The notes: generated by a model not told the origin, from the sequence alone. 64,000 nucleotides of DNA from Nemertoderma westbladi (GCA_032718475.1 JAUCBJ010001185.1:10315-74314); one strand, 5' to 3'; shown: positions 12,866-54,275, counted from the stretch's first letter. Program-made: numbers and translations.

Positions 12866-13919
12866 GGACACAGGGATAGGCCTAACTGCCTTGCCTAATG
12901 ATGCAGATATCTATAGACCTATTTTCCAGGTTGCAAATGAGGTGCAAATCCAAATGCAAAAATATTACATAATTGTCAATATTACAGCACCGTAGGCCTA
13001 TATTAGGCCTACCGCTATGGCGCTACCGGTGTAGCAGAGAATTTCCACCCCCTAAAAATTCACCCCCCGGTAGTGTACTTTCTTTTCACCCCCTGGTCCT
13101 GGTTTGAATTCACTAGGGTATTTTAACCGGGGGTGAAACAACTCTCAGGCTCAGCTGATTTTTTAGTGAAATGTAACCCTGACTGAACCTCCTTCAGTCT
13201 GTCAGTGTATTCTTACCCCTATGCCTGCATGCTGCCGTGATATTTTAAATTTTAATATAATTTAAATTCGATATAACAGTATAAGAATTGGGATATTATG
13301 TTATATATCTCTGTATCTGTATGTCAGTATGTGTTATATATAAAATTAAAGCTAATTTTTGAGGTGAATATACACTTTTCCAGGTGAATATACGATGCCA
13401 GGTTACAGTTCATTTTTGCTATTTATTTTTTTTGTACTTCCAAAACGTACCCAATGTATCATTGTTAAAACGTGCCCAGTATTTGGGTACGTTTTTGTTT
13501 GGGTACGTTTTAACCAGGGTACGTTTTCACTTGTTCCCGTTAAATTTGCTTCTGTGATTATTCAGTTTTATTCGCTGAAGGTTTTTATTTCCGTATATTA
13601 ACTCTAGAACATTGCAATATTGTATGTATATAGATAGCTGTATTGTATTTTTTAGTAGGATCCGTCTGTCTGTGGTTGCAATATAATGGCTCTCTCTGTG
13701 GGATTCGTGTTTTACAAATGGCCCCTTTTACAATTACGCTTCTCACACAATGCGTTGTGATTTTTGCACCCCATTTGCAGCCTTTGGTACTCGTAGTGCA
13801 GTGAAGAACTGGCATCAATGTACTGTTTATTGACTAATTAACCTCAGTTTTGTATCGCTTGCATAATAAGATAATACAGTTTTTTCTTTTCTCCTTTTTA
13901 ATAAATATTAATTATAACA

Positions 13920-14690
13920 ATGACGGCTCCTCCAGCGAAGATGTCAAAAACTGACAACGGTCCCTCAGTAGATACTGGCCACATTATCGACGGGTCTGGG
14001 GACCACGAAACACACGACGCCATCGAGCAGATAGACGCTGTCCAGAACGAAATAGACAAGCTAAACGAACGGGCTTCAGAGGAAATACTCGCCGTCGAAC
14101 AGAAATACAACAAAGAACGGCAACCCCTGTTCGAAAAGCGCGCGGAAATTATCGACAAAATACCGAACTTTTGGGTGACATCTTTTGTCAACCATCCTGT
14201 CTTCACGGACTTTCTCCACGAGGAAGACACAGAAGCTTTGCAATATCTCACCAAATTGGACGTGAAAGAATTCGAGGACGTGAAATCAGGTTATAAAATA
14301 TCGTTCGTCTTCAAAGCGAATCCTTTCTTCGAGGAATCAGTGCTGGAGAAATCGTTCCATCTCAACGAGATCGGGGAGCCCACATCCAAGTCGACGACGA
14401 TTACCTGGAAGTCGGGGAAGGATCTAACGAAAGCGTCGAGTAACGCGAAGGCCGGAAGGAAGAGGCCGGTGGAAGAGCCGGAGAGCTTCTTCTGTTGGTT
14501 CGACGATAACAGCGAGGCGGCAGCTGACGAACTAGGGGAGGTTATCAAGGACGACATCTGGCCCAACCCCCTGCAATACTACCTACAGGGCGAGGGTGAT
14601 GAGTTAGACGACGACGAAGCTCTCGATGAGATAGAGGAGGAAGAGGAAGATGAAGAGCCCGATGAGGAAGATGAAGGAGAGGAAGGTTAG
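13920..14690 (+). CDS. SET: Protein SET / TAF-I (NAP-family histone chaperone, I2PP2A), intronless CDS
   Basis: 256 aa with [81 protein letters not shown] and an acidic tail, all SET hallmarks. Confidence 0.97.
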
Positions 14691-22825: not shown

Positions 22826-23701
22826 ACTACTACTACTATAATCGGCCTGCAGCATTGAAACTGCACATATTTTGTCACCACCACGCAATCCACAATTGGC
22901 AAGCCCAATGCAGCATGCATTAAGAATGCTATGCCGGCTTATCAACAAAGTTGTACCGCCACAACTCCCTATTCCCCATGACTTTCGCGAGATTATCCGC
23001 ATTTCCAAGGTCATTGTCCTTTTGGGGGCGTTTCACGAAAGTCATGGACTGTCCACCATGTTTATTTTCTCCATGGGGCTGCCAAAGCACAAGATTGTAC
23101 ACAGACTGGTCATCACGGCGAAAACAATGTCCTACAAAGCGGATGCGGCTTCGTTCTAGTGTCAAGTTTGGGGGAACCAATGGGACACCTCCAATGTTAT
23201 ATAGTGTCTGGTTAGAGATGTGTGCATTGTACTTGACACAGTGAACCCAGCGTAGCATTCTTGTGAATCTTCCATCCAGAGATTTGGTGTCCTCAGCAGT
23301 TAGAGCCCAGCATGGACTCCCGTAGAGGAGTACTGGAACTACTACTGCTCTAAATAATCGGACCTTAAGTTTCCGATTAATTCTATGTGACTTCCAAATC
23401 CTGGAAAGCCAATGCAATGCTGCCCATGCCTTTCCCTTACGTATTCGAAGGACCTCATCTGACTTCCGGATCCATGATCCCAGATAACAGAAGTCGTCCA
23501 CATGCTCAAGCATACCATCCTTTGAGCTTTTCATTTGCTCATCCGGTCAGAGATTTGCTGAGGACTTTCAAAGTTAACTGTCAAAATTTGTGTATTTTTG
23601 GAGATAACAAAAAGACGAACACAAGAAGCCGTTGGGCTCCTTCTAGTGATTCTGAGAGTACTCCTAAGTCATCAGCAAAGTTTAGATCAGCTAGGTACTT
23701 G
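22826..23701 (-). mobile_element. RTE-clade LINE (family A), 3' part, interrupted at 23701 by a TIR element
   Basis: RT C-terminal motifs FCYLGS, LLYGSPCW, GHCFRR; (TAG)n tail at about 22826-22838; similar to 31591-32440. Confidence 0.92.
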
Positions 23702-24924
23702 AGTAGTAATAGTATGCCACTCTCTGCGACAGTTAGACCAACTTCGCACCTTGGGTGTTAAGTAGGTCATTAATTAATTAAACAATTAATTAATTGGTCG
23801 ATTAAACAATTAATTAATTGTTTAATCAATCGATTTGTATCAAATAATGTTGCCAAAGGCAATTTAATATGATACAAATCAATCAGATAGGGATGCGCAA
23901 TGAATAAATTGTACTATAACAAACGAAATATACAACACAATAGGCACTGTACAATATAATATACAATACATTTGTATTATTTTTGTTGTACAGTAGGTAA
24001 AGGTAGAATTAAATATAAACATGCGAGCGGGGCCCAAAACATAAATTACCCTTTCAAGAAAATAAAGTGGGCCAGTTTGGCCCTGAGTCATCCCTCAATA
24101 ATCTGCGGCCGTTGGGCTCTTATTAGATGTGGTATGACTAACCCCACCATTGAGTTATACTGCATGTCAACGCGTGGGTGGGACTGCCTTGGTATGTTGC
24201 CTTGATAGCCTTTAGCTTCGTTATCATGTAAGATTGGAAACCTTCGGTTTGCATCTTACGCGCCAGCATCACCTCAATCGCACATAGGCCAACTACAACC
24301 ATTAATTACCGCACATACGAGCGCATATGTTAATTTAAACCTGCGCGCCTGATCGCACATAATTAAATAAAGCCCTCTTTTAATACATAAGTTATATACA
24401 GTTTATCTTCAATTTATTGAATTTGTTTTTATTTACAACCCTAATTGTTCTTCTGTATTATAATTTAAGTTTTATTATAACAAGCTATATCCTGTTAATC
24501 TTATTAATTTTATTTGTACTGAGGTTTTCGAAGGCGCTGTTTCCAATGGTCCTACTCTCAAAACGATCTAACCTACTGTATAATTAATTACTTAAGTCTG
24601 CGAGGTATGCGTAAGTAACAAATCTCGTTTACCAGTTTTCCTTAAAAAATATGAAGCTATATTGCTTAAGATTTCTGAGGGGCGAGCCATGAGGTAAGAT
24701 GTTTGAGACTTTTTTAGATATATTATTACTTAATTTTGACCCCCCAGTCGATATCTATTACAATATAGGCTATATCTTTTTGCGGAGTCACAGAGTAGTC
24801 TGAAGATCCGAGTCTGCTGCTAGAGGGTGAAATGTCTCAAAGTAAAAACCATACGGTAGCTATGAATTGGTTACTAGGCAATAATACTACATTTTGTATA
24901 GTTAGGTCTATTGCTGATCGAACG

Positions 24925-25008
24925 AAAACTGCCCTGGTCCATGTGAGGATTGAACCCACGACCTATTGGAGATGTGAATTCAAAGCAACCACTACACCAA
25001 GGTGGAAC
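24925..25008 (-). ncRNA. tRNA-like Pol III cassette in left TIR
   Basis: Reverse-complement copy of 27114-27197. Confidence 0.55.
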
Positions 25009-25079
25009 AGTAACGTTTGAATTTGTTCGTTAACGTTCGAATTTGTAAGACTCTGATTTAAGACCTGAGGCACTCCCCA

Positions 25080-25290
25080 CACCACACCACACCAAGCCAC
25101 AGCCACAGCCACAGCCACAACCACAGCCACAGCCACAACCACAGCCACAGCCACAGCCACAGCCACAGCCACAACCACAGCCACACCACACCACAGCCAC
25201 ACCACAGCCACAACCACAGCCACAGCCACAACCACAGCCACAGCCTCAGCCACACCACAGCCACAGCCACACCACACCACAGCCACCACT
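25080..25290. repeat. (CCACAG/CCACAA)n hexamer microsatellite
   Basis: Direct reading; inner edge of the left TIR. Confidence 0.95.
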
Positions 25291-26607: not shown

Positions 26608-27040
26608 GAGGCTGTGGTTGTGGCTGTGGCTGTGGCTGTGGTTGTGGCTGTGGCTGTGGCTGTGGTTGTGGCTGTGGCTGTGGCTGTGGTTGTGGCTGTG
26701 GCTGTGGTTGTGGCTGTGGCTGTGGTTGTGGCTGTGGCTGTGGTTGTGGCTGTGGCTGTGGCTGTGGTTGTGGCTGTGGCTGTGGTTGTGGCTGTGGCTG
26801 TGGCTTGTGGCTGTGGTTGTGGCTGTGGCTGTGGCTGTGGCTGTGGTTGTGGCTGTGGCTGTGGCTGTGGTTGTGGCTGTGGCTGTGGCTGTGGCTGTGG
26901 TTGTGGCTGTGGTGTGGCTGTGGCTGTGGCTGTGGTTGTGGCTGTGGTTGTGGCTGTGGCTGTGGTTGTGGCTGTGGTTGTGGCTGTGGCTGTGGCTGTG
27001 GTCTGTGGCTGTGGTTGTGGCTGTGGTTGTGGCTGTGGCT
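26608..27040. repeat. (GGCTGT/GGTTGT)n hexamer microsatellite
   Basis: Inverted counterpart of 25080-25290, about twice as long. Confidence 0.95.
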
Positions 27041-27113
27041 TGTGGGGAGTGCCTCAGGTCTTAAATCAGAGTCTTACAAATTCGAACGTTAACGAACAAA
27101 TTCAAACGTTACT

Positions 27114-27197
27114 GTTCCACCTTGGTGTAGTGGTTGCTTTGAATTCACATCTCCAATAGGTCGTGGGTTCAATCCTCACATGGACCAGGGCAGTTTT
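27114..27197 (+). ncRNA. tRNA-like Pol III cassette in right TIR
   Basis: A box TGGTGTAGTGG, T-arm GTGGG-TTCAATC-CTCAC (B box), partial acceptor stem GTTCCAC/ATGGACC, TTTT terminator. D and anticodon arms are non-canonical. Confidence 0.55.
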
Positions 27198-28422
27198 CGT
27201 TCGATCAGCAATAGGCCTAACTATACAAAATGTAGTATTATTGCCTAGTAACCAATTCATAGCTACCGTATGGTTTTTACTTTGAGACATTTCACCCTCT
27301 AGCAGCAGACTCGGATCTTCAGACTACTCTGTGACTCCGCAAAAAGATATAGCCTATATTGTAATAGATATCGACTGGGGGGTCAAAATTAAGTAATAAT
27401 ATATCTAAAAAAGTCTCAAACATCTTACCTCATGGCTCGCCCCTCAGAAATCTTAAGCAATATAGCTTCATATTTTTTAAGGAAAACTGGTAAACGAGAT
27501 TTGTTACTTACGCATACCTCGCAGACTTAAGTAATTAATTATACAGTAGGTTAGATCGTTTTGAGAGTAGGACCATTGGAAACAGCGCCTTCGAAAACCT
27601 CAGTACAAATAAAATTAATAAGATTAACAGGATATAGCTTGTTATAATAAAACTTAAATTATAATACAGTAGAACAATTAGGGTTGTAAATAAAAACAAA
27701 TTCAATAAATTGAAGATAAACTGTATATAACTTATGTATTAAAAGAGGGCCTTATTTAATTATGTGCGATCAGGCGCGCAGGTTTAAATTAACATATGCG
27801 CTCGCATATGCGGTAATTAATGGTTGTAGTTGGCCTATGTGCGATTGAGGTGATGCTGGCGCGTAAGATGCAAACCGAAGGTTTCCAATCTTACATGATA
27901 ACGAAGCTGGAGGCTATCAAGGCAACATTCCAACGGCAGCCCCACCCACGCGTTGACATACAGTATAACTCAAGGTGGGATTAGTCATACCACATCTAAT
28001 AAGAGCCCAACGGCCGCAGATTATTGAGGGATGACTCAGGGCCAAACTGGCCCACTTTATTTTCTTGATGAGGGTAATTTATGTTTTGGGCCCCGCTCGC
28101 ATGTTTATATTTAATTCTACCTTTACCTACTGTATGGCAAAAATAATACAAATGTATTGTATATTGTATTGTACAGTGCCTATTGTGTTGTATATTTCGT
28201 TTGCTGTAGTACAATTTATTCATCTCGCGTCCCTATCTGATTGATTTGTATCAAATTAAATTGCCTTTGGCAACATTATTTGATACAAATCGATTGATTA
28301 AACAATTAATTAATTGTTTAATCGACCAATTAATTAATTGTTTAATTAATTAATGACCTACTTAACACCCAAGGTGCGAAGTTGGACTAAACTGTCGCAG
28401 AGAGTGGCATACTATTACTACT

Positions 28423-28896
28423 TACTTGGCAGGATTTCCTCGACTTCTGGAGCCAGGAGGAGGATTTCCATCACTCCATCATCATTATGATGATCTAAGG
28501 ACATGCGTAGAACATAGTCAATCACAATTATGAATAATAATGGTGCAAGTGTGTCTCCTTGGAGGACGCCCCATAACACTTCAAATGGTTCTGTGTCACC
28601 ATCAACAGTAGACACAAATGTTGTCGAACCATCGTATGGTGATATGATTGCTGCAATAATTTAATCAGGAATCCCATATAATGAAAGTATGCTGAACATA
28701 CGTGAGCGAGAGACTGAATCAAAGGCCTTGAAGAAGTCAACAAAGATAATAGCCAGATGCCTGTCTTTCTTTTTTGATAACTCTTCAATTATCCTTCTAA
28801 GTGCCAAAATGGGCTCCATGGTCCCACGACCTTTACGGAACCCATTCTGATTTCCACGGAGCAGTCTCTCAATGGGCTGATCCCTTATGCGATTTA
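28423..28896 (-). mobile_element. RTE-clade LINE (family A), upstream continuation of 22826-23701
   Basis: GVLQGDTLAP RT motif; collinear with about 32433-32903; frameshifted. Confidence 0.92.
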
Positions 28897-31075
28897 CTAC
28901 TACGACTAGGTCGAGCGAACTCGGACAGTGGAAATGAGATCCTTCCAGGCTTCCCGATTCTCCATAGTTGTCGCAATTTCGTTTCTCCCAAGATCAGTAT
29001 CCCTTTCAAGTTGATCTATATATGTTATGGCCGGCCGTCCACGACTACGCTTTCCATGAGTTGGTTGCCAGAAAAGTAGATCTGGTATGACCCCGTCTTT
29101 ACTTCGCCAGCAGTGCCCACTGAATCTTCATCTGCGTTCACGGAGGGTGGTTGATACAGGTGGTATTGTACCATAAAGCTCAGCGTTTGTCATGTGTTGT
29201 CTCCAGCTGATGTTTAGGGCTGCCCTTAGTAGTCTTGTGTACCAACCATGAATTCGTTGTTCAAGTGATTTAGTCAGTGTCCAGGTCTCACCCCTGTATA
29301 AAAATACACTTTCCACTGTGGCTCGAAAGAACTTAGTCTTCATGTGCCTGGAGAGATCTGATTTCCAGATGGTATCCATTTTTGATAGAGCTACCCAAGC
29401 CTTTGCTTTCCTAACTTCTATGTCCTTTTTGCTACTCTCTATCCATGATCCTAGGTACTGGAAGTCGTCAACCTTCCTTAGTTGATTATTATCAATGGTT
29501 GTCAAGTTTCCATCAACATTAAAAGTCATGAATTCGGTCTTGGTAGCATTTATATCCAACCTCCTTAGCAACCCTCTCCACTTTATTCAGTAGAAGCTGT
29601 GCATCTGCTAGCGTATTAGAGAGCAGGGCGATGTCATCCGCAAAGTCGGTGTCTGTGATTGTAGTTGCCGGATATCTACTACTTCTGCGTTCTTGAAGTG
29701 TGAATCCCAGATCTTCACCCTTTGTGGCCGTCATCATTGCGTAATCCAGTACAATTACAAATAGTAATGGTGCTAATGTCTCACCTTGCAGTACACCAGG
29801 ATTGAGATTGCAGGATTGAGAAAAACTCAGTTTCACCATCTGGTGAGAGTACCTGCGCTTCTGTGTCACAATATAACAATCCAATGCCAGCAACGATTAC
29901 TTCTGGTATTCCATAAGCTCTTAGGATTTCAAGCATTTTACCTCTATGGATGGAGTCGAATGCCTTCTTGAAGTCCACAAAAGTCATGACTGCGGGGAGA
30001 TTCTTTGACTTTTCCTTCAATCAGTCTCCGTAATGCAAGTATCTGAGCTAATGTTGATCTACTTGGTCGAAATCCGTTTTGGCTCTTACGCAGTAGTTTC
30101 TCTATGTGAGGCCTAATCCTATATACACCATGTCCCGTAATATAGTGTCATTTTCTGATGACACGGACCCCCCCCCCCCCCCCAGATTTTTCTACAAATC
30201 TTTATCATATTGCTTGAAATTTGAAACACAACTAGTTATGTTTCAAATTTCAAGCATTATGATAAAGATTTGTAGAAAAATCTGGGGGGGGGGGGGGGGG
30301 GGGTCCGTGTCATTAGAAAATGACACTCTATTACGGGACATGGTGTAGAATCATTTTATTGTATATTTTGGCAGCTACCACAAGCAGACAGATCCCACGA
30401 TAGTTTGTTGGTATGCCGAGGTCTCCTTTCTTGGGGATAGGCTTTAGTTGACCTTTAGTCCATATTGGTAGTGGCTTTTCCCCTTTTAACATCCGGTTGC
30501 AAACCGGATGTTATTTTCCATACCTCCGCTGGGATTTCATCTAATCCACTCGCTATATTATTGGACATGCATTTAATGCTTCTTTGGAGTTCGGCAGGTG
30601 TGAAGTCCCCTGTTTCTATAGGTAGTGTCTTGTCATGTATTTTCCTTGTAGGGCTGACCTCGATGCTTGGTGGCTGCCCAAGCAAGTTGCTGAAGTGATT
30701 TTTCCACTTCCCAACACGTTCTTCGGGACTATCGGCTTTGAGGCGCCCCTTTGCACAACTTTTCCGACCAGATACCTCATTTACAGTTTGCCAGGTAAGT
30801 CTTGATTGTTGCTGTATTCCTGTATGTGAGCAGTTGTGTAATTGCTTCAATTTTATCCTGTATGTACTTTTCCTGGCTGATGTTGTAGGCCAATTTAAGA
30901 TCGTCCTTAGCTTTCTCAACCTTGTTAATGTTTTCGGTTGTTCGGTTTTTATTTGTGGGCTATCTTAAGATCATCTCTCTTACAAGTAACCTCAGAGTTT
31001 TGCCACGGCACATACTGTTTTCGTTTGGGTTTCTGGGGGATATGCCTCTTAGCTGATTCCTTGTAGGCTTGGTAT
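28895..31075 (-). mobile_element. Second RTE-like LINE (family B), degenerate and 5'-truncated
   Basis: Frameshifted RT motifs FVDFKKAFDS, GVLQGETLAP, DFADD, FQYLGS, ASGLDEIPAEVWK; degenerate (TAG)n tail at about 28895-28908. Confidence 0.9.
30126..30345. mobile_element. 220-bp palindromic MITE with TA target duplication (Tc1/mariner-type) inside LINE B
   Basis: TA|CACCATGTCCCGTAAT...ATTACGGGACATGGTG|TA; nearly the whole element is self-complementary, including poly-C/poly-G arms. Confidence 0.9.
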
Positions 31076-31114: not shown

Positions 31115-31300
31115 CGACCTACGCGTAGTTTGTTACTTCCATTCCTGTCATTTACCGGTAGGGCCAGACTTACTGCCTTTTTAACAACTACGCGTAGGTG
31201 TTTTAAAACTACGCGTAGTTATTTTGGAACTACGCGTAGGTATTTTCAAACTACGCGTAGGTGGTACGCGTAGCTACGCGTAGGTGCTACGCGTAGCAGT
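31115..31300. repeat. Cluster of eight TACGCGTA palindromes (seven as CTACGCGTAG)
   Basis: Copies at about 31119, 31188, 31209, 31230, 31251, then three close-packed copies to about 31297. Confidence 0.9.
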
Positions 31301-31540
31301 CCTGATAACAATGATTTTTCATTTCAGGTCCGGTAGGGTTGAGTTGTCAGGCAAGTATCGGTATATGTCAGGTATCTGATTATCAGACAAATGGAATAAC
31401 AGAATCGGAAGCTCATATCTATACATACATACAGCACTGGTAATAAATAATATTCGGCTCTTTCACATACAAAGGTGTAATATTATGGTTGTTTTTCAGA
31501 AGTGGAAAAAATGAGAAAGTGCGTCACCGGGGGTTGAACC

Positions 31541-31586
31541 AGCGCTATACGTACGTTTCGGCCTAACAGGCCTCATCAGTAGCTCT
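31541..31586 (-). ncRNA. Minimal type-I hammerhead ribozyme, intact core, inside a tRNA-like scaffold (about 31506-31595)
   Basis: Minus strand: AGAGCUA-CUGAUGA-GGCC(UGUUA)GGCC-GAAA-C-GUAC-GUA-UAGCGCU. All core nucleotides present; GUA cleavage triplet. Confidence 0.88.
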
Positions 31587-31590
31587 AACC

Positions 31591-33135
31591 ACTACTACTA
31601 CTACTAGGATCGGCATGCTGCATTGCAGCTGCATTTTTAAGAATGCTGTGCCGGCTTGTCAACAAAATTGCACCGCCACAACTCCCTATCACCCATGACA
31701 TTTGCTAGATCATCCGCATCTTTAAGGCCAGTGTCCTTTAAGATGCGTCTCAAGAAAGTCATGGGCTGTCCACCATGCTTATTCACTCCATGGGGCTGCC
31801 AAAGTACAAGATTATGCACTGGCTGGTCCTCACGGCGAAAGCAATGTCCTGCAAAGCGGAGGCGATTTTGTTCTAGTGTCAAGCTTGGGGGAACCAATGA
31901 GACACCTCCAATGTTATATAGTGTCTGGTTGGAGATGTGTGCATTGTACTTGACACAATGAACCCGGCGTAGCATTCTTGTGAATGTGCCATCCAGAGAT
32001 GTGGTGTCCTCAGCAGTTAGAGCCCAGCATGGACTCCCGTAGAGGAGTACTGGAACTACTGCTGCTCTAAATAATCGGACCTTAAGTTTCCGATTAATTC
32101 TCGGTGACTTCCAAATCCTGGAAAGCCTATTCAAGGCTGCCCATGCCTTTCCCTTACGTATTCGAAGGTCCTCACCTGACTTCCGGATCCATGATCCCAG
32201 GTAACAGAAGTCGTCCACATGCTCAAGCATACCATCCTTTGAGCTTATGCTCATCCGATCAGAGACTTGCTGAGGACTTTCAAAGTTAACTGTCAGAATT
32301 TTGGTCTTTCTGGAGTTAATAAAAAGACCAACACTAGAAGCAGCATGTTCTAATGAGCTGAGGAGCCGTTGGGCTCCCTCTAATGATTCTGAGAGTACTC
32401 CTAAGTCATCAGCAAAGTCTAGATCAGTTAGGTACTTGGCAGGATTTCCTCGACTTCTGGAGCCAGTAGGTGGAGTTATCATCACCCCATCATCATTATA
32501 ATGATCTAAGGACATGCGTAGAACATAGTCAACCACAATAATGAACAAGAATGGTGCAAGTGTGTCTCCTTGGAGGACGCCCCATAACACTTCAAATGGT
32601 TCTGTGTCACCGTCAACAGTAGACACAAATGTTGTCGAACCATCGTATACTGATCTGATTGCTGCAATAATTTCATCAGGAATCCCATATAATGAAAGTA
32701 TGCTGAACATACGTGAGCGAGAGACTGAATCAAAGGCCTTGAAGAAGTCAACAAAGATAACAGCCAGATGCCTGTCTTTCTTTTTTGATAACTCTTCAAT
32801 TATCCTTCTAAGTGCCAAAATGGGCTCCATGGTCCCACGACCTTTACGGAACCCATTCTGATTTCCACGGAGCAGTCTCTCAATGGGATCCCTGATGCGA
32901 TTTAATAGAATCCTATTGTATAGCTTTGCAGCAATCGAGATCAATGAGATTCCCCGAAAAGAACCATAGAGTGTTAGGTTGCCCTTCTTGGGAACTGGCA
33001 CCAACTTATTTGTTTTCATTTCTTGTGAGACTCTTGTCGTTCTGTACATGTCTACTATGATGGGATAAATGAGCTCCAAACACTCAGGTATTTTAAAGAC
33101 CTCAGGGGGGACACCATCAACTCTACTGGCACGCG
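31591..33135 (-). mobile_element. RTE-clade LINE (family A), 5'-truncated, uninterrupted RT ORF (31637-33169)
   Basis: 510-aa ORF with PVPKKG, FRGISL, NQNGFR, FVDFFKAFDS, GVLQGDTLAP, DFADD, YLGS; (TAG)5 tail; no endonuclease domain. Confidence 0.95.
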
Positions 33136-33174
33136 GCAGCCTGGACTTCAGCACAGGAGATATCGCCATTTGGA

Positions 33175-33390
33175 ATATCTGGGAGTATAGTTATAGACTC
33201 AGACATTTTTACTTCTATAAAGGAGACAACACATTACAAATGCCGAGCTTTATGGCACAATACCACCTGTATCAACCACCCTCCGTGAACGCAGATTAAG
33301 ATTCAGTGGGCATTGCTGGAGAAGTAAAGACTAGGTCATACAGTACCAACCAGATCTACTTTTCTGGCAACCAACACACTTTCTCCAACA
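33175..33390 (+). mobile_element. Fragment of LINE family B, opposite orientation
   Basis: GAGCTTTATGGCACAATACCACCTGTATCAACCACCCTCCGTGAACGCAGA matches the reverse complement of about 29130-29185. Confidence 0.8.
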
Positions 33391-37516: not shown

Positions 37517-39918
37517 TTAAGTTGACGCGGGTTGTACCATAACGACTGTTATTGGTTGCATCCTCACCGTATGGTGGTTGAACATGTGATGGAACTGTCT
37601 GGCCGCCCCGCTGGTGTGGAACGTAACCAAGGCCTTGCACTGTTCCCGCATAAGTTTCACGGCTTTGGGCTGGGCCACCGATTCGCACAGATCCCGTATA
37701 TCTTGGGAGGCGACGGCCTCCGCAAGGTTCTGGATTAATATCATGTTGGTGTCGGTGTTTAGGGGCACGGCTTTGAGTAAAACCTTTTTGGGAACTTTGG
37801 ACTTCTTTGCTGCGGGTTGCGTTGCTGGCGGCTGGGTTGGCGGCGCTTTCTTTGGAACATTAGCTAATGTTTGTGGAGATTTCGCGTCGTTAACGAGTAG
37901 AGCCTTGGAGGCCCGGCTAAGAATTAAACTCTGTCGCACCGAATCATTATCCGCTGCGAATCTCATCGCGCGCAGAGTCTTTTTGTCCAGCTGTTTTGGG
38001 TCGACAACCTTCTGCGGCTCGGTCGCCAACTGCTCACCAACAGGAGTCGACTCTCGATTTCTGCCACCCCGCCTGTTCGTCGCTTTCGATTTTGCACCGC
38101 CTTTGTAATCCGGGGCAGCAACTGCGTTGTTAATGGTTACCTTGGTCGGGGTAACGACGCGCTCATTTATCGGTTTGCTTTCGCTCGCACCCTTAATCTG
38201 ACTGGCCTGCTCCAATCTGCGTCTCTCCTTGCGCTTCTCTATTGCGACTCGCATCATGTTCTGCTCTTCCAGCTGCAGTTGGCGTATCTTCTCCGCCTCT
38301 GTGAGGGCCTGGGTTGGGGTTGCGCTGCGGGGGTTTCTGGTTTCTCCGGCGACGGGCGTTTCTCTCGCCTCCCAGGGCTCCTCTCCTTTCTCGGCCTATC
38401 GCTTTTCTTCTCGGTCGCCCCCCTGGGGGCCCCCCTGTCCCGGGGGCGGTCCCAGGCGGGTCGTCGTTGGCGCTGTCTGTCTCGTCGATCCCTGGGCGGC
38501 GGGGAGGGGGAATAATAGTTGCCCCATCGTCTTTTCTCCCTACTGCGACGTGCAGGTGGGGGCGACCAGTACCGATGCGGGGACGCCCCCCTGCTAGGGG
38601 GACTCCGCTCCCTCGCCCATCGCTCAGTTGGGAAAGGGGGCGCCGAGGGGGTGGATGTTGTCACGGAATCGGTGTAGCTGGGGGGTGGCCCGTACGACAT
38701 GGGGATGTCAGTGTCGGGAGGCGGCCGGGAGAAATCGATAGACGATGAGATGGGAGGGGGCGGCGGGGGGATCGACATGCCCCCCATATCCCCCGGGTCC
38801 CCGCACCCAGGAGGGGGGCCGCGGAAGTTAGGGTTGATGTGAATCCGAGGGGGCGGGAAGGTCCCCGGGGGTTGGGGGTGGTCCCTGGGGTCGGGGTGGA
38901 GGAACCCGTGGAACCGTGGTGGAGGGTGCATGGAGAGCAGCGACGGGAGCGGGGCGTCGTGGCGGAGCGGGGGATCGTGTCGGAACGGAGGAGGGACCAT
39001 GGGGGGCGGGACCAGAGACCGCGGGAGCTGTTGCTTCACCCCGGGGACCAATCGGATGGAAGGGTAGGGACACCGACTCGAGTAGCTCATAGGCCGGTTG
39101 TATCCGAGGCGTTTGTTTCTATCGAAGGAGCTAATGGATTTCTCGATCTCGGCGGTTACTGGCAGCCGATCTGGGATTCCCTTCTTCACATTGTTCGAGT
39201 TGGGCGCCCCGCCAATTCGCTCGTTTTTAAACCGCGAACTTCTCTTGAGATAGGCCTCGTCTTCATCGTCGTCTTCGCTTCCCTGAGACGTCGAGATACT
39301 CGGGGAGTTGAAGCTCGAACGGCTACTCTCATCCACTGGGGGTCGCTTGGGTGGACTGTCATCGTGTGTAGAGCTACTAATGGGCGCCTTAGTTATAGTT
39401 TGAGTTTTAGTTTCACTACTACTTTCACTTTTCCTTGGTGGTGGTGGATTGACTTCCGATATTGCAACTGACTTTAACTTCTTCGTTTGAGGTTTACCAT
39501 CCCACTCGTCCTTGGCACTATGAGCCAATGGCGCCACCACGGCTATATTACCCCGGTCATCTATGGCATCATTACCAGATTTAACAGGATCGCGATCGGG
39601 TTTTGGTAAACACCTCGGTTGGGGGGCAGTCCCTGACGGTCTCAGTGGACTAGAATCATCGAAAATATTATCGGGAACTTCAATGCTTAATAAGCTACAT
39701 TGACTCGGCTGAGAGTCCATGCTGACGTTAATATCGACTTTACTACTCTGACCCACATGATCCTCCGTGGATTTGGAGTTGTCGACAATTTCGTCCTCGC
39801 TTTCGTCATCTTCGTCGCTTCCAATCCCCAACAATTCATCTTCATCGATGCCGTCTAAATCGATATCATTGTCGCCATTGTCTGCGCGATCGTTCATTAA
39901 GTCATCTTCAGCAGACAT
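37517..39918 (-). CDS. RBM33: RBM33-like RNA-binding protein, apparently one coding exon, with one -1 frame change near 38330
   Basis: Acidic N-terminus (DIDLDGIDEDELLG), RFKNER, Pro-rich region with IHINPNFRG, coiled coil LEEQNMMRVAIEKRKERRR, C-terminal RRM-like domain (ILIQNL...ALVTF...FHHMFNH). Acceptor CAG|G-ATG before MSAEDD at 39918. Family assigned from recalled motifs. Confidence 0.78.
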
Positions 39919-41504
39919 CCTGTTTCTAAGTTTACAACCTTTAATCGAATCGTGGAATAGGTGCGTTTCACTGCCCGAGTTTGTAGAAGTAATCAGCCAC
40001 ACCCCTCCTAATGTACTATTGCTTTACTGATGATATAATTATATATATATAAACCGGAAATTAAAAATACGATTTAAACGATTCATTGAATGTATATCAC
40101 AAGAAAAATTTTACTTTATTCATGTACACTAAGTTATAATAACATTTCGAAAAAGCACATTTATTGAAAAATTAATTGTCCGAAAACAATAATTAAATTA
40201 AATATTTTATGGAGAATGAGTCAAAAAGCTATACCGGTACCGGCCAACTTAAATATACTACATCATGGTCTACATAATGTTAAATGGTCTGAAGAAATTT
40301 ATCGTAATGATACATATGCACATCAACATACAAGCAAAATTATAACTTAACACCGACTCGACAAGAGTGAACAATGATCACGTTATTAAAAATCGTGAAT
40401 GTTCATTGCAACCCCCCAACCCCACATATGTAAATAATGCAATAATGTTTTAACTCAATCCAGTTTGGGGCCTCTGATTTTTTCCCTTAGGCTACCATTG
40501 ATGTAGGCTGAGGCTACATACTTGATTCCATTTATGCTACCTCAACCCTGCGCCCGCAACCTCAAATCCAGGTATCAGGCCCAGGGCCATGTATGTAACA
40601 CAGGTCATACGCCATAAGGCAGTAAGGAAGGTAATGCTAATGTTAAGGTAATGAGGCCCCTAAACTGCTAAAAATATAATATTCACAATAACTGAATACT
40701 TTTAAAATACAACAACAAATAAATATGCAGGCATGTGCGTACATTATTGTCAGTAGCATATCACATGTTTATGTAATAATTGTCATTAAGGCAATTTATG
40801 TAAAATCAAAGAGCAAACTCATACAGAGTTAAATTTCTCTTTCAAAATAATAACAATTAGGTACCATGCGTAATATCTGTATACCGATTAGCAGGTGCCA
40901 GGTACAGAGGTATCGGTATATATATATACATTATACAGATATATATAATCTATATATATATATATATAAGTAAATGTTATCGTTATTGTTATTGATGATT
41001 TAATAGTTTAGGGCATAAGAACAGAATATAGGAAGAAGCTCAATACTTGTACTTATGGAAAACGTAGGCTACGCTGTACTGCTGTACACACCAAAATAAA
41101 GTTCAAACTGAAAGTAATTTATAGTAGTACCGGCTGACCGGTATAGCGGTGCGGTATATACCAGTGCGGTAAGTAGGCCCTATATATGTACATAGCGGTA
41201 TATAAGTAAGTATAGCCGTATAGCGAAGCGACCATATTTATAAAATAATGATAAAAACAAAAATTATGTTATCTGATTATGGATTATGGGGCCTATAATA
41301 TGTAATACAAATGCTAAAATGAAACACATAAAGACAATTGTCAGATTGTTGCTGGGCTAATTAAATACCCTGATACCCGGTACTGACTGACTGACAGACT
41401 GATAGCTAAAAATAAATAAAAAGGATTTCTAATAAAATTAGTTACCGGTACCTACCTACCGGTAAATACAACTGCGAACATGTTAAAACAATAGGCATTA
41501 AATG

Positions 41505-54104: not shown

Positions 54105-54275
54105 TCTACATGCTGCATTGCAGCTGAATTGAGATTACCCTGCCTTCAACAGATAATTTGTACTGCCTAACATTGAATCCACAATCTTCATGCTGAAATG
54201 CAGCTTGCATAAGTAAGAATGCTGTGTGGGCTTATCGTCAAAATTGCGCCGCCACAACTCCCTATCCCGATTGAC
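54105..54275 (-). mobile_element. Short 3' remnants of LINE family A
   Basis: TAAGAATGCTGTG...CAAAATTGCGCCGCCACAACTCCCTATC matches about 31638-31690; CATGCTGCATTGCAGCTG matches about 31614. Confidence 0.7.

Follow-up and report, generated by a model that had tools for sequence, protein, structure and literature searches.

Features of the locus

The window, that is, the whole 64,000-nt (64-kb) stretch of DNA analysed here, is repeat-rich animal DNA. On its minus strand, a 5′-truncated LINE abuts a short, unrelated repeat, likewise 5′-truncated, that carries a hammerhead ribozyme among motifs resembling those of a tRNA-type RNA polymerase III (Pol III) promoter. Copies of the repeat family are also seen as contigs in X1, X3, X4 and X5, which are public sequencing runs of the source organism. 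The features of the locus are the following.

31592-33378, minus: unrelated 5′-truncated LINE with a reverse transcriptase domain (PF00078) and an inverted 5′ piece at 33222-33378
31592-31606, minus: (TAG)5 tail of the LINE
31476-31591, minus: 5′-truncated copy of a high-copy repeat, likely a solo LTR, recognised by contig pile-up; the whole unit is ~138 nt
31582-31591, minus: A-box or D-loop-like segment, 3′ part only, the 5′ part being present in other copies
31586-31580, minus: 5′ strand of hammerhead stem I, overlapping the D-stem-like segment (sequence and folding)
31579-31573, minus: hammerhead core CUGAUGA, free of variants at or above 1% in the lists for X1, X3 and X5
31572-31560, minus: stem II hairpin, 4-5 bp (pair probabilities 0.81-1.0)
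31559-31556, minus: GAAA, part of the 31559-31548 block (GAAA, palindromic helix III, GUA)
31556-31549, minus: 8-nt palindrome of helix III (descriptor and folding)
between 31548 and 31547, minus: predicted cut, following the GUA triplet (descriptor and folding)
31547-31541, minus: 3′ strand of stem I, which competes with an extended T-arm-like hairpin
31540-31530, minus: B-box-like motif GGTTCAACCCC, starting 7 nt downstream of the cut
31511-31506, minus: T6 run, a possible Pol III terminator, 36 nt past the cut
31476-31480, minus: LTR-like 3′ terminus of the family, TTACA (contig ends in X3 and X1)

The LINE is independent of the repeat, its 3′ end being carried with other flanks by 121 X1 and 99 X3 contigs. 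It is very abundant, with further copies in the window at 22826-23701, 28423-29204 and 54109-54268, and the inverted 5′ piece at 33222-33378 is a mark of twin priming. In the runs, LINE tails meet the hammerhead repeat at four different places (31517, 31548 and 31551 in other copies), and GTA/TAG micro-homology could lie behind the junctions at 31548 and 31551. In the window, the LINE has removed or replaced the first ~22 nt of the repeat copy. A preliminary description of the locus had remarked that the (TAG)n tail obscures the 5′ end, and (TAG)5 at 31606-31592 bears this out; its reading of TAGTGG as the A box is rejected, half of that motif being LINE tail, with TAG as the last unit of (TAG)5 and the repeat starting at 31591. 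The possibility that the ribozyme forms part of the LINE 3′ end is ruled out by other LINE copies, which are without a hammerhead.

Elsewhere in the window, another repeat immediately downstream of the element contains, at 31179-31297, a cluster of about ten copies of the palindrome CTACGCGTAG. A further tRNA-like segment with A and B boxes, ribozyme-free, is found at 24900-25020 (minus) and 27100-27210 (plus), its two occurrences being due to a 97% inverted duplication (23702-25286 and 26825-28422). An intronless frame of the SET/TAF-I (NAP) family, 261 codons long and possibly a retrocopy, occupies 13905-14690 (plus), with its best named relatives in marine invertebrates (brittle star, bivalves and annelids) at 63-65% identity, none of them close. 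GC-rich long frames at 37517-40023 (minus) give a weak match to the RNA-recognition motif (PF00076) and perhaps belong to a retroelement ORF1 or an RNA-binding gene.

Anatomy of the hammerhead

By its anatomy, the minus-strand motif is a genuine type I hammerhead, with CUGANGA, GAAA, UH, helices I-III and an open helix I. The complete core reported in the preliminary description is confirmed, with stem II, the 8-nt palindrome and GUA all in place and stem I paired at 6 of 7 positions in the window copy; a fully paired 7-bp version occurs in one X5 contig. A hammerhead descriptor matched once in the 64 kb (both strands) and in none of 100 Markov-1 random windows with the same dinucleotide make-up, and by chance a B box matching GGTTCRANNC should turn up 0.002 times within 60 nt. 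The Rfam and tRNA-gene searches to which the preliminary description had pointed were silent, the motif itself being found by the descriptor: in the 64-kb window, where the repeat copy is truncated, Rfam gave no match at the gathering score (below threshold, Hammerhead_3 alone, at 14.8 bits, E 3.5), and ARAGORN and Rfam both returned 0 tRNAs. No second copy of the hammerhead repeat was found inside the window.

The motif matches the form typical of animal retrozymes, a canonical type I hammerhead with a short palindromic helix III. Penelope minimal hammerheads have an extra base before stem II, a helix II of 7-8 bp and a helix I of 4-5 bp (PMC4209133); the window motif shows neither the extra base (between positions 9 and 10.1) nor the long helix II nor the short helix I. 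Some Penelope hammerhead variants do carry a small palindromic helix III (PMC4209133).

A high-copy repeat family with promoter-like boxes

Contigs matching 31440-31597 number 711 in X3 and 48 in X5, and X1 shows the same pattern; runs X7 and X8, the latter guessed to be RNA, gave 0 contigs, an absence to which no weight attaches. Summed contig depth is taken here neither as copy number nor as proof of 5′ truncation. The hammerhead is not a stand-alone gene but part of a high-copy mobile repeat. The window copy begins at 31591 and lacks its first ~22 nt. Past this position, 29 X1 and 24 X3 contigs carry a leader of their own, ~22 nt of which is common, and the consensus of which is the same in X1 and X3 over 24 letters. 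The leader supplies TGGC, followed by a short spacer and TGG at 31591-31589, hence an A-box-like TGGC...TGG. Because other copies provide the upstream TGGC, the order A box, hammerhead, B box, T6 is supported, at the sequence level, for the repeat family as a whole. Thus, the placement of the ribozyme between A- and B-box-like motifs, as originally proposed, stands by virtue of these 29 X1 and 24 X3 contigs, the A box being incomplete in the window copy; the B-box-like segment and the T6 run are indeed found downstream of the hammerhead, and other copies, far from lacking an A box, carry TGGC...TGG.

The remainder of the tRNA likeness is weaker. The preliminary description saw a tRNA-like unit with an acceptor-like ACGCA end, terminating at T6. 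There is no cloverleaf and no conserved acceptor stem, the positions able to pair with the leader being the most variable part of the family. ACGCA is rejected as an acceptor end, as it is private to the window copy: position 31520 reads G (ACGCG) in 97% (X1), 98% (X3) and 89% (X5) of contig depth. Most copies retain T6, which is interrupted in one multi-copy X5 contig and intact in a cyclic X4 contig described below, and the repeat runs ~30 nt beyond it, to 31476.

These observations bear on the possibility that the unit is a stand-alone short Pol III RNA, SINE-like or a host gene, serving for self-cutting into tRNA-half-like pieces. The A box, B box and T6 do stand in the right order for an RNA of ~100 nt, and a 7-nt leader segment pairs by eye at 6 of 7 positions with 31519-31513. 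Against this, there is no tRNA call, the would-be acceptor positions are precisely the most variable ones, and the family extends a further 30 nt beyond T6, its end there being fixed and without a simple-repeat tail; furthermore, it bears no likeness to the 3′ end of the neighbouring LINE, and a 341-nt cycle exists (see below). We consider this explanation very improbable, and it makes better sense to see any tRNA-half-like pieces as incidental to a retroelement's promoter and ribozyme than as what these are for.

A 65-nt tandem unit present in X3 and X5, which come from two studies, contains the A-box-like motif and the hammerhead without the B box (31543-31588); it represents a minimal ribozyme satellite that originated from this family. 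A search of the window for a displaced 5′ piece of the repeat gave 13 matches at up to 3 mismatches, with 13.1 expected. Pattern scans detected no member of the family in metagenomes (0 of 26 loci), viral contigs (0 of 7, 0 of 0 and 0 of 15) or prokaryote genomes (0 of 0 and 0 of 2).

Termini of the repeat and a 341-nt cycle

The 3′ end of the family is fixed. In X3, 98 of 252 partly matching contigs depart from the window copy at 31476, 31495, 31498 or 31506 and, where a consensus is given, go on to an end equivalent to 31476, followed by unlike AT-rich flanks, as is also seen in 56 X1 contigs; ends are given for about half of the partly matching X3 contigs, and variable 5′ truncation could hide among the others. 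At the opposite end, the leader contains TGTCA 22 letters beyond 31591 (TGT occurs at a frequency of 0.018 of positions). The 5′ end is deduced from a 30-letter consensus with agreement of 0.60-0.66, and the loose-end agreement values, under three assumed flank values, correspond to 17-28 shared leader letters and not to an open-ended leader. Thus delimited, the family appears to start with TGT and to end with ACA, forming a TG...CA unit of ~138 nt.

One X4 contig (371 nt, depth 5.5) starts at 31551, runs to 31471, continues through 223 other letters and returns via 31591 to 31522. Because its ends overlap by 30 nt, it amounts to a 341-nt cycle composed of the 138-nt unit and about 203 nt, the letters between being unread; the corresponding full element would measure 479 bp (138 + ~203 + 138). 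Such a cycle would be equally expected from an LTR-internal-LTR arrangement, tandem arrays or an RNA circle. Since the LINE-to-element depth ratio in X4, a run guessed to be RNA, is DNA-like (67 to 5.5, and about 10 to 1 in X1), we take the cycle as an arrangement of the element rather than as circular RNA. The match in X4 overshoots the supposed LTR end by 5 nt, for which chance is the only explanation we can offer. No convincing target duplication was found in the window around the LINE plus the repeat, the copy there being without its 5′ end.

We tentatively favour, at somewhat short of an even chance, the view that the repeat is a solo LTR of a Helenus-type miniature LTR retrotransposon that replicates like a plant LTR retrozyme. 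The fixed 3′ end, the TGT start in the leader, the order of the boxes, the 341-nt cycle and the occurrence of the hammerhead above chance all speak for it. On the other side, no primer-binding site (PBS), polypurine tract (PPT) or target duplication was seen. Against it also stand the 65-nt tandem and four X5 contigs, one of depth 90, that begin within 3 nt of the cut (three contigs behind 31549 and one behind 31550, with the depth-90 contig stopping at 31548); no such cut-site cluster is seen among the X3 contigs listed.

The principal alternative is a non-LTR retrozyme or a Penelope-like 3′ end with an acquired tRNA-type promoter. Under this scenario, Pol III would transcribe the 341-nt unit, the RNA would be cut and closed into a circle, and a Penelope reverse transcriptase would copy it, with many short 3′-end copies left behind; TG...CA would have arisen by chance. 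A canonical type I hammerhead whose helix III is short and palindromic is the form found in animal retrozymes (PMC4209133), the 341-nt unit lies inside the 170-400 nt retrozyme range (PMC7229834), and hammerheads reside near Penelope 3′ ends, the cut here being 72 nt from the fixed end; X5 copies starting at the cut site, the 65-nt tandem unit in two studies, the AT-rich flanks and the X4 match 5 nt beyond the supposed LTR end fit as well. However, the copies share a 5′ boundary that lies upstream of 31591 by ~22 nt and of the cut by 66 nt, which is not expected of target-primed copies, TGT and ACA lie at the two ends, the motif is without the Penelope minimal-hammerhead traits, and no Penelope protein was found in the 7 long ORFs scanned of 28. 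As to the tandem arrangement of non-LTR retrozymes (150-450 bp), the 341-nt cycle occurs in one run, and most contigs exit the unit into unlike flanks. On balance, we regard this alternative as possible, if on the unlikely side.

Predicted folding and sequence variation

For the isolated 46-nt motif, the minimum-energy fold is a double-hammerhead dimer, at -31.0 kcal/mol versus -10.0 per monomer. In an 86-nt RNA, a B-box hairpin fold (-21.4), which pairs the 3′ strand of stem I with the B-box arm, is favoured over the hammerhead fold (-12.1), and the probability of stem I falls below 0.001. When the RNA is grown from its 5′ end, the stem I probability is 0.75 at 54 nt, 0.64 at 57 nt and at most 0.05 from 60 nt, and among dimers the hammerhead form ranks first at 56 nt and not at 62, 86 or 116 nt. 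Thus, dimerisation through the palindrome, as initially envisaged, is predicted for the isolated motif and is no longer the best dimer at 62 nt or more. These runs used the truncated window copy, the stem I mismatch of which is absent from at least one X5 contig. Folding of the whole unit is no better than that of shuffles (z -0.31). The predictions can mean that the ribozyme forms briefly and then passes into an off state useful for a circle or, else, that it cuts rarely.

Variants at or above 1% in X1, X3 and X5 number 0 in the core, four in the motif and 10-11 in the 30-nt tail after the B box. The two commonest motif variants keep the pairing as G-U, the common one in stem II changing G-C to G-U, and in a CpG the essential G is unchanged, with its partner C changed in 26-32% of the depth. 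The variant counts represent few independent events, and variants near contig ends fall outside the lists. The conservation of the core lends weak support to an active ribozyme.

A passenger role for the hammerhead should be considered at this point: it might have landed in a variable region between the boxes of a Helenus-type LTR, where the B-box hairpin would keep it off while the element uses ordinary strand transfer. The stem I probability below 0.001 in the 86-nt RNA is consistent with such a role, and a between-box cut could destroy the terminal redundancy needed by normal LTR replication. Moreover, most Helenus LTRs are ribozyme-free: among 10 CTGANGA places in the supplement of PMC10886601, a file in which line breaks can hide motifs, there are two hammerheads, none of them between the boxes. 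A passenger is at odds, however, with a complete core without a listed variant while 10-11 tail positions vary, and with common variants that keep G-U and a CpG the G of which is constant, few as the events are; in addition, folding predicts a stem I when the transcript has reached 54-57 nt (0.75 and 0.64). We therefore judge this account unlikely.

Relationship to known elements

Helenus (TRIMp3; Kojima 2024, PMC10886601) comprises elements of 311-1263 bp with box A of the form TRGCY..YGG and box B GGTTC, to which the boxes of the window family conform. Helenus elements are further characterised by two LTRs flanking an internal part that bears a PBS and a PPT and, in animals, by a target site duplication of 4 bp. 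The likeness extends to a short TG...CA repeat with an A box, a B box and a T-rich tract, tRNA likeness confined to the boxes, many solo copies and an inferred 479-bp element inside the Helenus size range (PMC10886601). In the supplement of that paper, animal Helenus LTRs of 104-200 nt show by eye TGT, A box, B box, T-rich tract and ACA in the same order as in the window family, and T runs after the B box are common. By contrast, the window family has a hammerhead between the boxes, with 41 nt from the D-stem-like C to the B box versus 27 in a standard tRNA. In the main text of PMC10886601, hammerheads appear in a reference only. Inspection of its supplement by eye shows an unremarked type III hammerhead, situated downstream of box B, in two gall wasp LTRs, Helenus-2_SyJa-LTR and Helenus-2_SyUm-LTR; ribozyme and Helenus modules do meet, as in these two LTRs. 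The wasp hammerheads have a 7-bp stem I and mutually complementary loops 1 and 2 (by eye), and are themselves candidate animal LTR retrozymes.

With plant LTR retrozymes (Cervera et al. 2016, PMC4918200), the family would share a ribozyme in each LTR, solo LTRs and a cycle of cutting, circularisation and reverse transcription by Gypsy machinery. It differs in being animal, in its type I hammerhead (mostly type III in plants), in an LTR of ~138 rather than ~330 bp, and in the tRNA-type promoter (PMC4918200). Published LTR retrozymes are from plants and have type III hammerheads, whereas type I with a palindromic helix III goes with non-LTR retrozymes and Penelope (PMC4209133; bioRxiv 10.64898/2026.07.22.740005). 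Animal non-LTR retrozymes, elements of 170-400 nt thought to depend on Penelope, resemble the window family in the type I hammerhead with palindromic helix III, in a unit size compatible with 341 nt and in tandem derivatives (PMC7229834; bioRxiv 10.64898/2026.07.22.740005). They are described in the accessible text of these sources without LTR features, unlike the LTR-like ends seen here, and that of PMC7229834 mentions no Pol III, A box or B box.

The Schistosoma Sm-alpha and Sj-alpha repeats combine a tRNA-derived Pol III promoter with a type I hammerhead in a high-copy animal repeat (PMC6765202, PMC2770079, PMC4918200). In Sm-alpha, the hammerhead follows the promoter (PMC6765202 Fig. 6G), and there is a full tRNA (PMC4918200), whereas here the ribozyme lies between the boxes; with the B box 7 nt downstream of the cut, the layout in which the whole promoter is upstream of the hammerhead does not apply. 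A literature search, outside of which most subscription papers and bioRxiv supplements lay, found no description of a hammerhead located between the A and B boxes, nor of any LTR retrozyme in animals. Sm-alpha has a promoter followed by a ribozyme, Helenus a promoter with no ribozyme described, and plant retrozymes a ribozyme in their LTRs; the between-boxes layout was not found described.

A proposed replication cycle

Returning to the reading of the repeat as a Helenus-type LTR with a retrozyme-like cycle, we infer five steps. First, the DNA boxes would recruit Pol III, with transcription starting near the 5′ end of the LTR. Second, the ribozyme would fold co-transcriptionally or as a palindrome dimer and cut after GUA, until the finished B-box hairpin captured the 3′ strand of stem I and rendered it inactive. 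Third, T6 would stop most transcripts, giving an RNA of ~100 nt that is cut into pieces of ~60 and ~40 nt; such short RNAs from many solo LTRs could act in trans as dimer partners. Fourth, a read-through RNA of a full element, cut in both LTRs, would release a 341-nt monomer with 5′-OH and 2′,3′-cyclic phosphate termini, and RtcB would circularise it, as it does with axolotl and mussel retrozyme monomers in vitro (PMC7229834). Fifth, a Gypsy-type reverse transcriptase and integrase would copy the circle into LTR-internal-LTR or solo-LTR DNA. The derivation of full and solo LTRs from a copied circle is the model for plant retrozymes (PMC4918200 Fig. 8 legend), and a Gypsy partnership is described for animal Helenus (PMC10886601). 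Because both boxes sit in every LTR, each new copy would regain the whole promoter despite the cut in the RNA. A real difficulty for this cycle is T6, which would end most Pol III transcripts before the internal part.

Independent occurrence of the layout

A scan for a hammerhead core combined with GGTTCRA yielded 33 loci, 10 of them with a stem II of at least 4 bp; four loci among the 33 additionally show a full B box and, upstream, an A-box-like motif. All four come from a single metagenome and represent a single repeat: their sequences are identical as far as a shared 3′ end and unlike beyond it. Each has an A-box-like motif, then a hammerhead core resembling type III, then a B box.

L006:27-124, plus: ribozyme-between-boxes repeat
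L008:26-123, plus: ribozyme-between-boxes repeat
L014:29-126, plus: ribozyme-between-boxes repeat
L018:29-126, plus: ribozyme-between-boxes repeat

In Rfam, this repeat matches Hammerhead_3 (27.6 bits, E 0.011), its cleavage triplet being ambiguous, GUU by reading and GUA in the Rfam alignment. By eye, the flank of L008 resembles an intron-split WD40 gene, so that a fungal host is probable. The repeat is unrelated in sequence to the window element. Separately, L019, L021, L022, L028, L032, L033, L037 and L048, which are prokaryotic or viral contigs, contain hammerhead-like cores with a good stem II and without tRNA-type boxes.

Implications

Taken at its broadest, the finding would be an LTR retrozyme of an animal that brings along a Pol III promoter of its own. 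In it, the ribozyme would stand in for the anticodon arm of the tRNA-derived LTR, the tRNA-like arms would serve as an off-switch in the finished or circular RNA, and short Pol III RNAs from solo LTRs would license cleavage in trans through palindrome dimers. The between-boxes design would then have arisen independently in the probably fungal repeat and, with hammerheads also lying in the wasp Helenus LTRs, ribozyme-bearing Pol III mini-retrotransposons would recur across eukaryotes. This comprehensive view is speculative, and we hold it to be rather doubtful as a whole.

Current work divides retrozymes into plant LTR elements with type III hammerheads and animal non-LTR elements with type I hammerheads (bioRxiv 10.64898/2026.07.22.740005). 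Should the family prove to be a non-LTR retrozyme, it would still present a promoter layout for which no description was found; if it is an LTR element, it would break this divide. Furthermore, reviews leave open which polymerase transcribes retrozymes (PMC7761336) and how animal circles escape re-cutting (PMC7229834). With a promoter, a ribozyme, a predicted off-switch and a terminator in a 138-nt unit, one small construct could address both of these questions.
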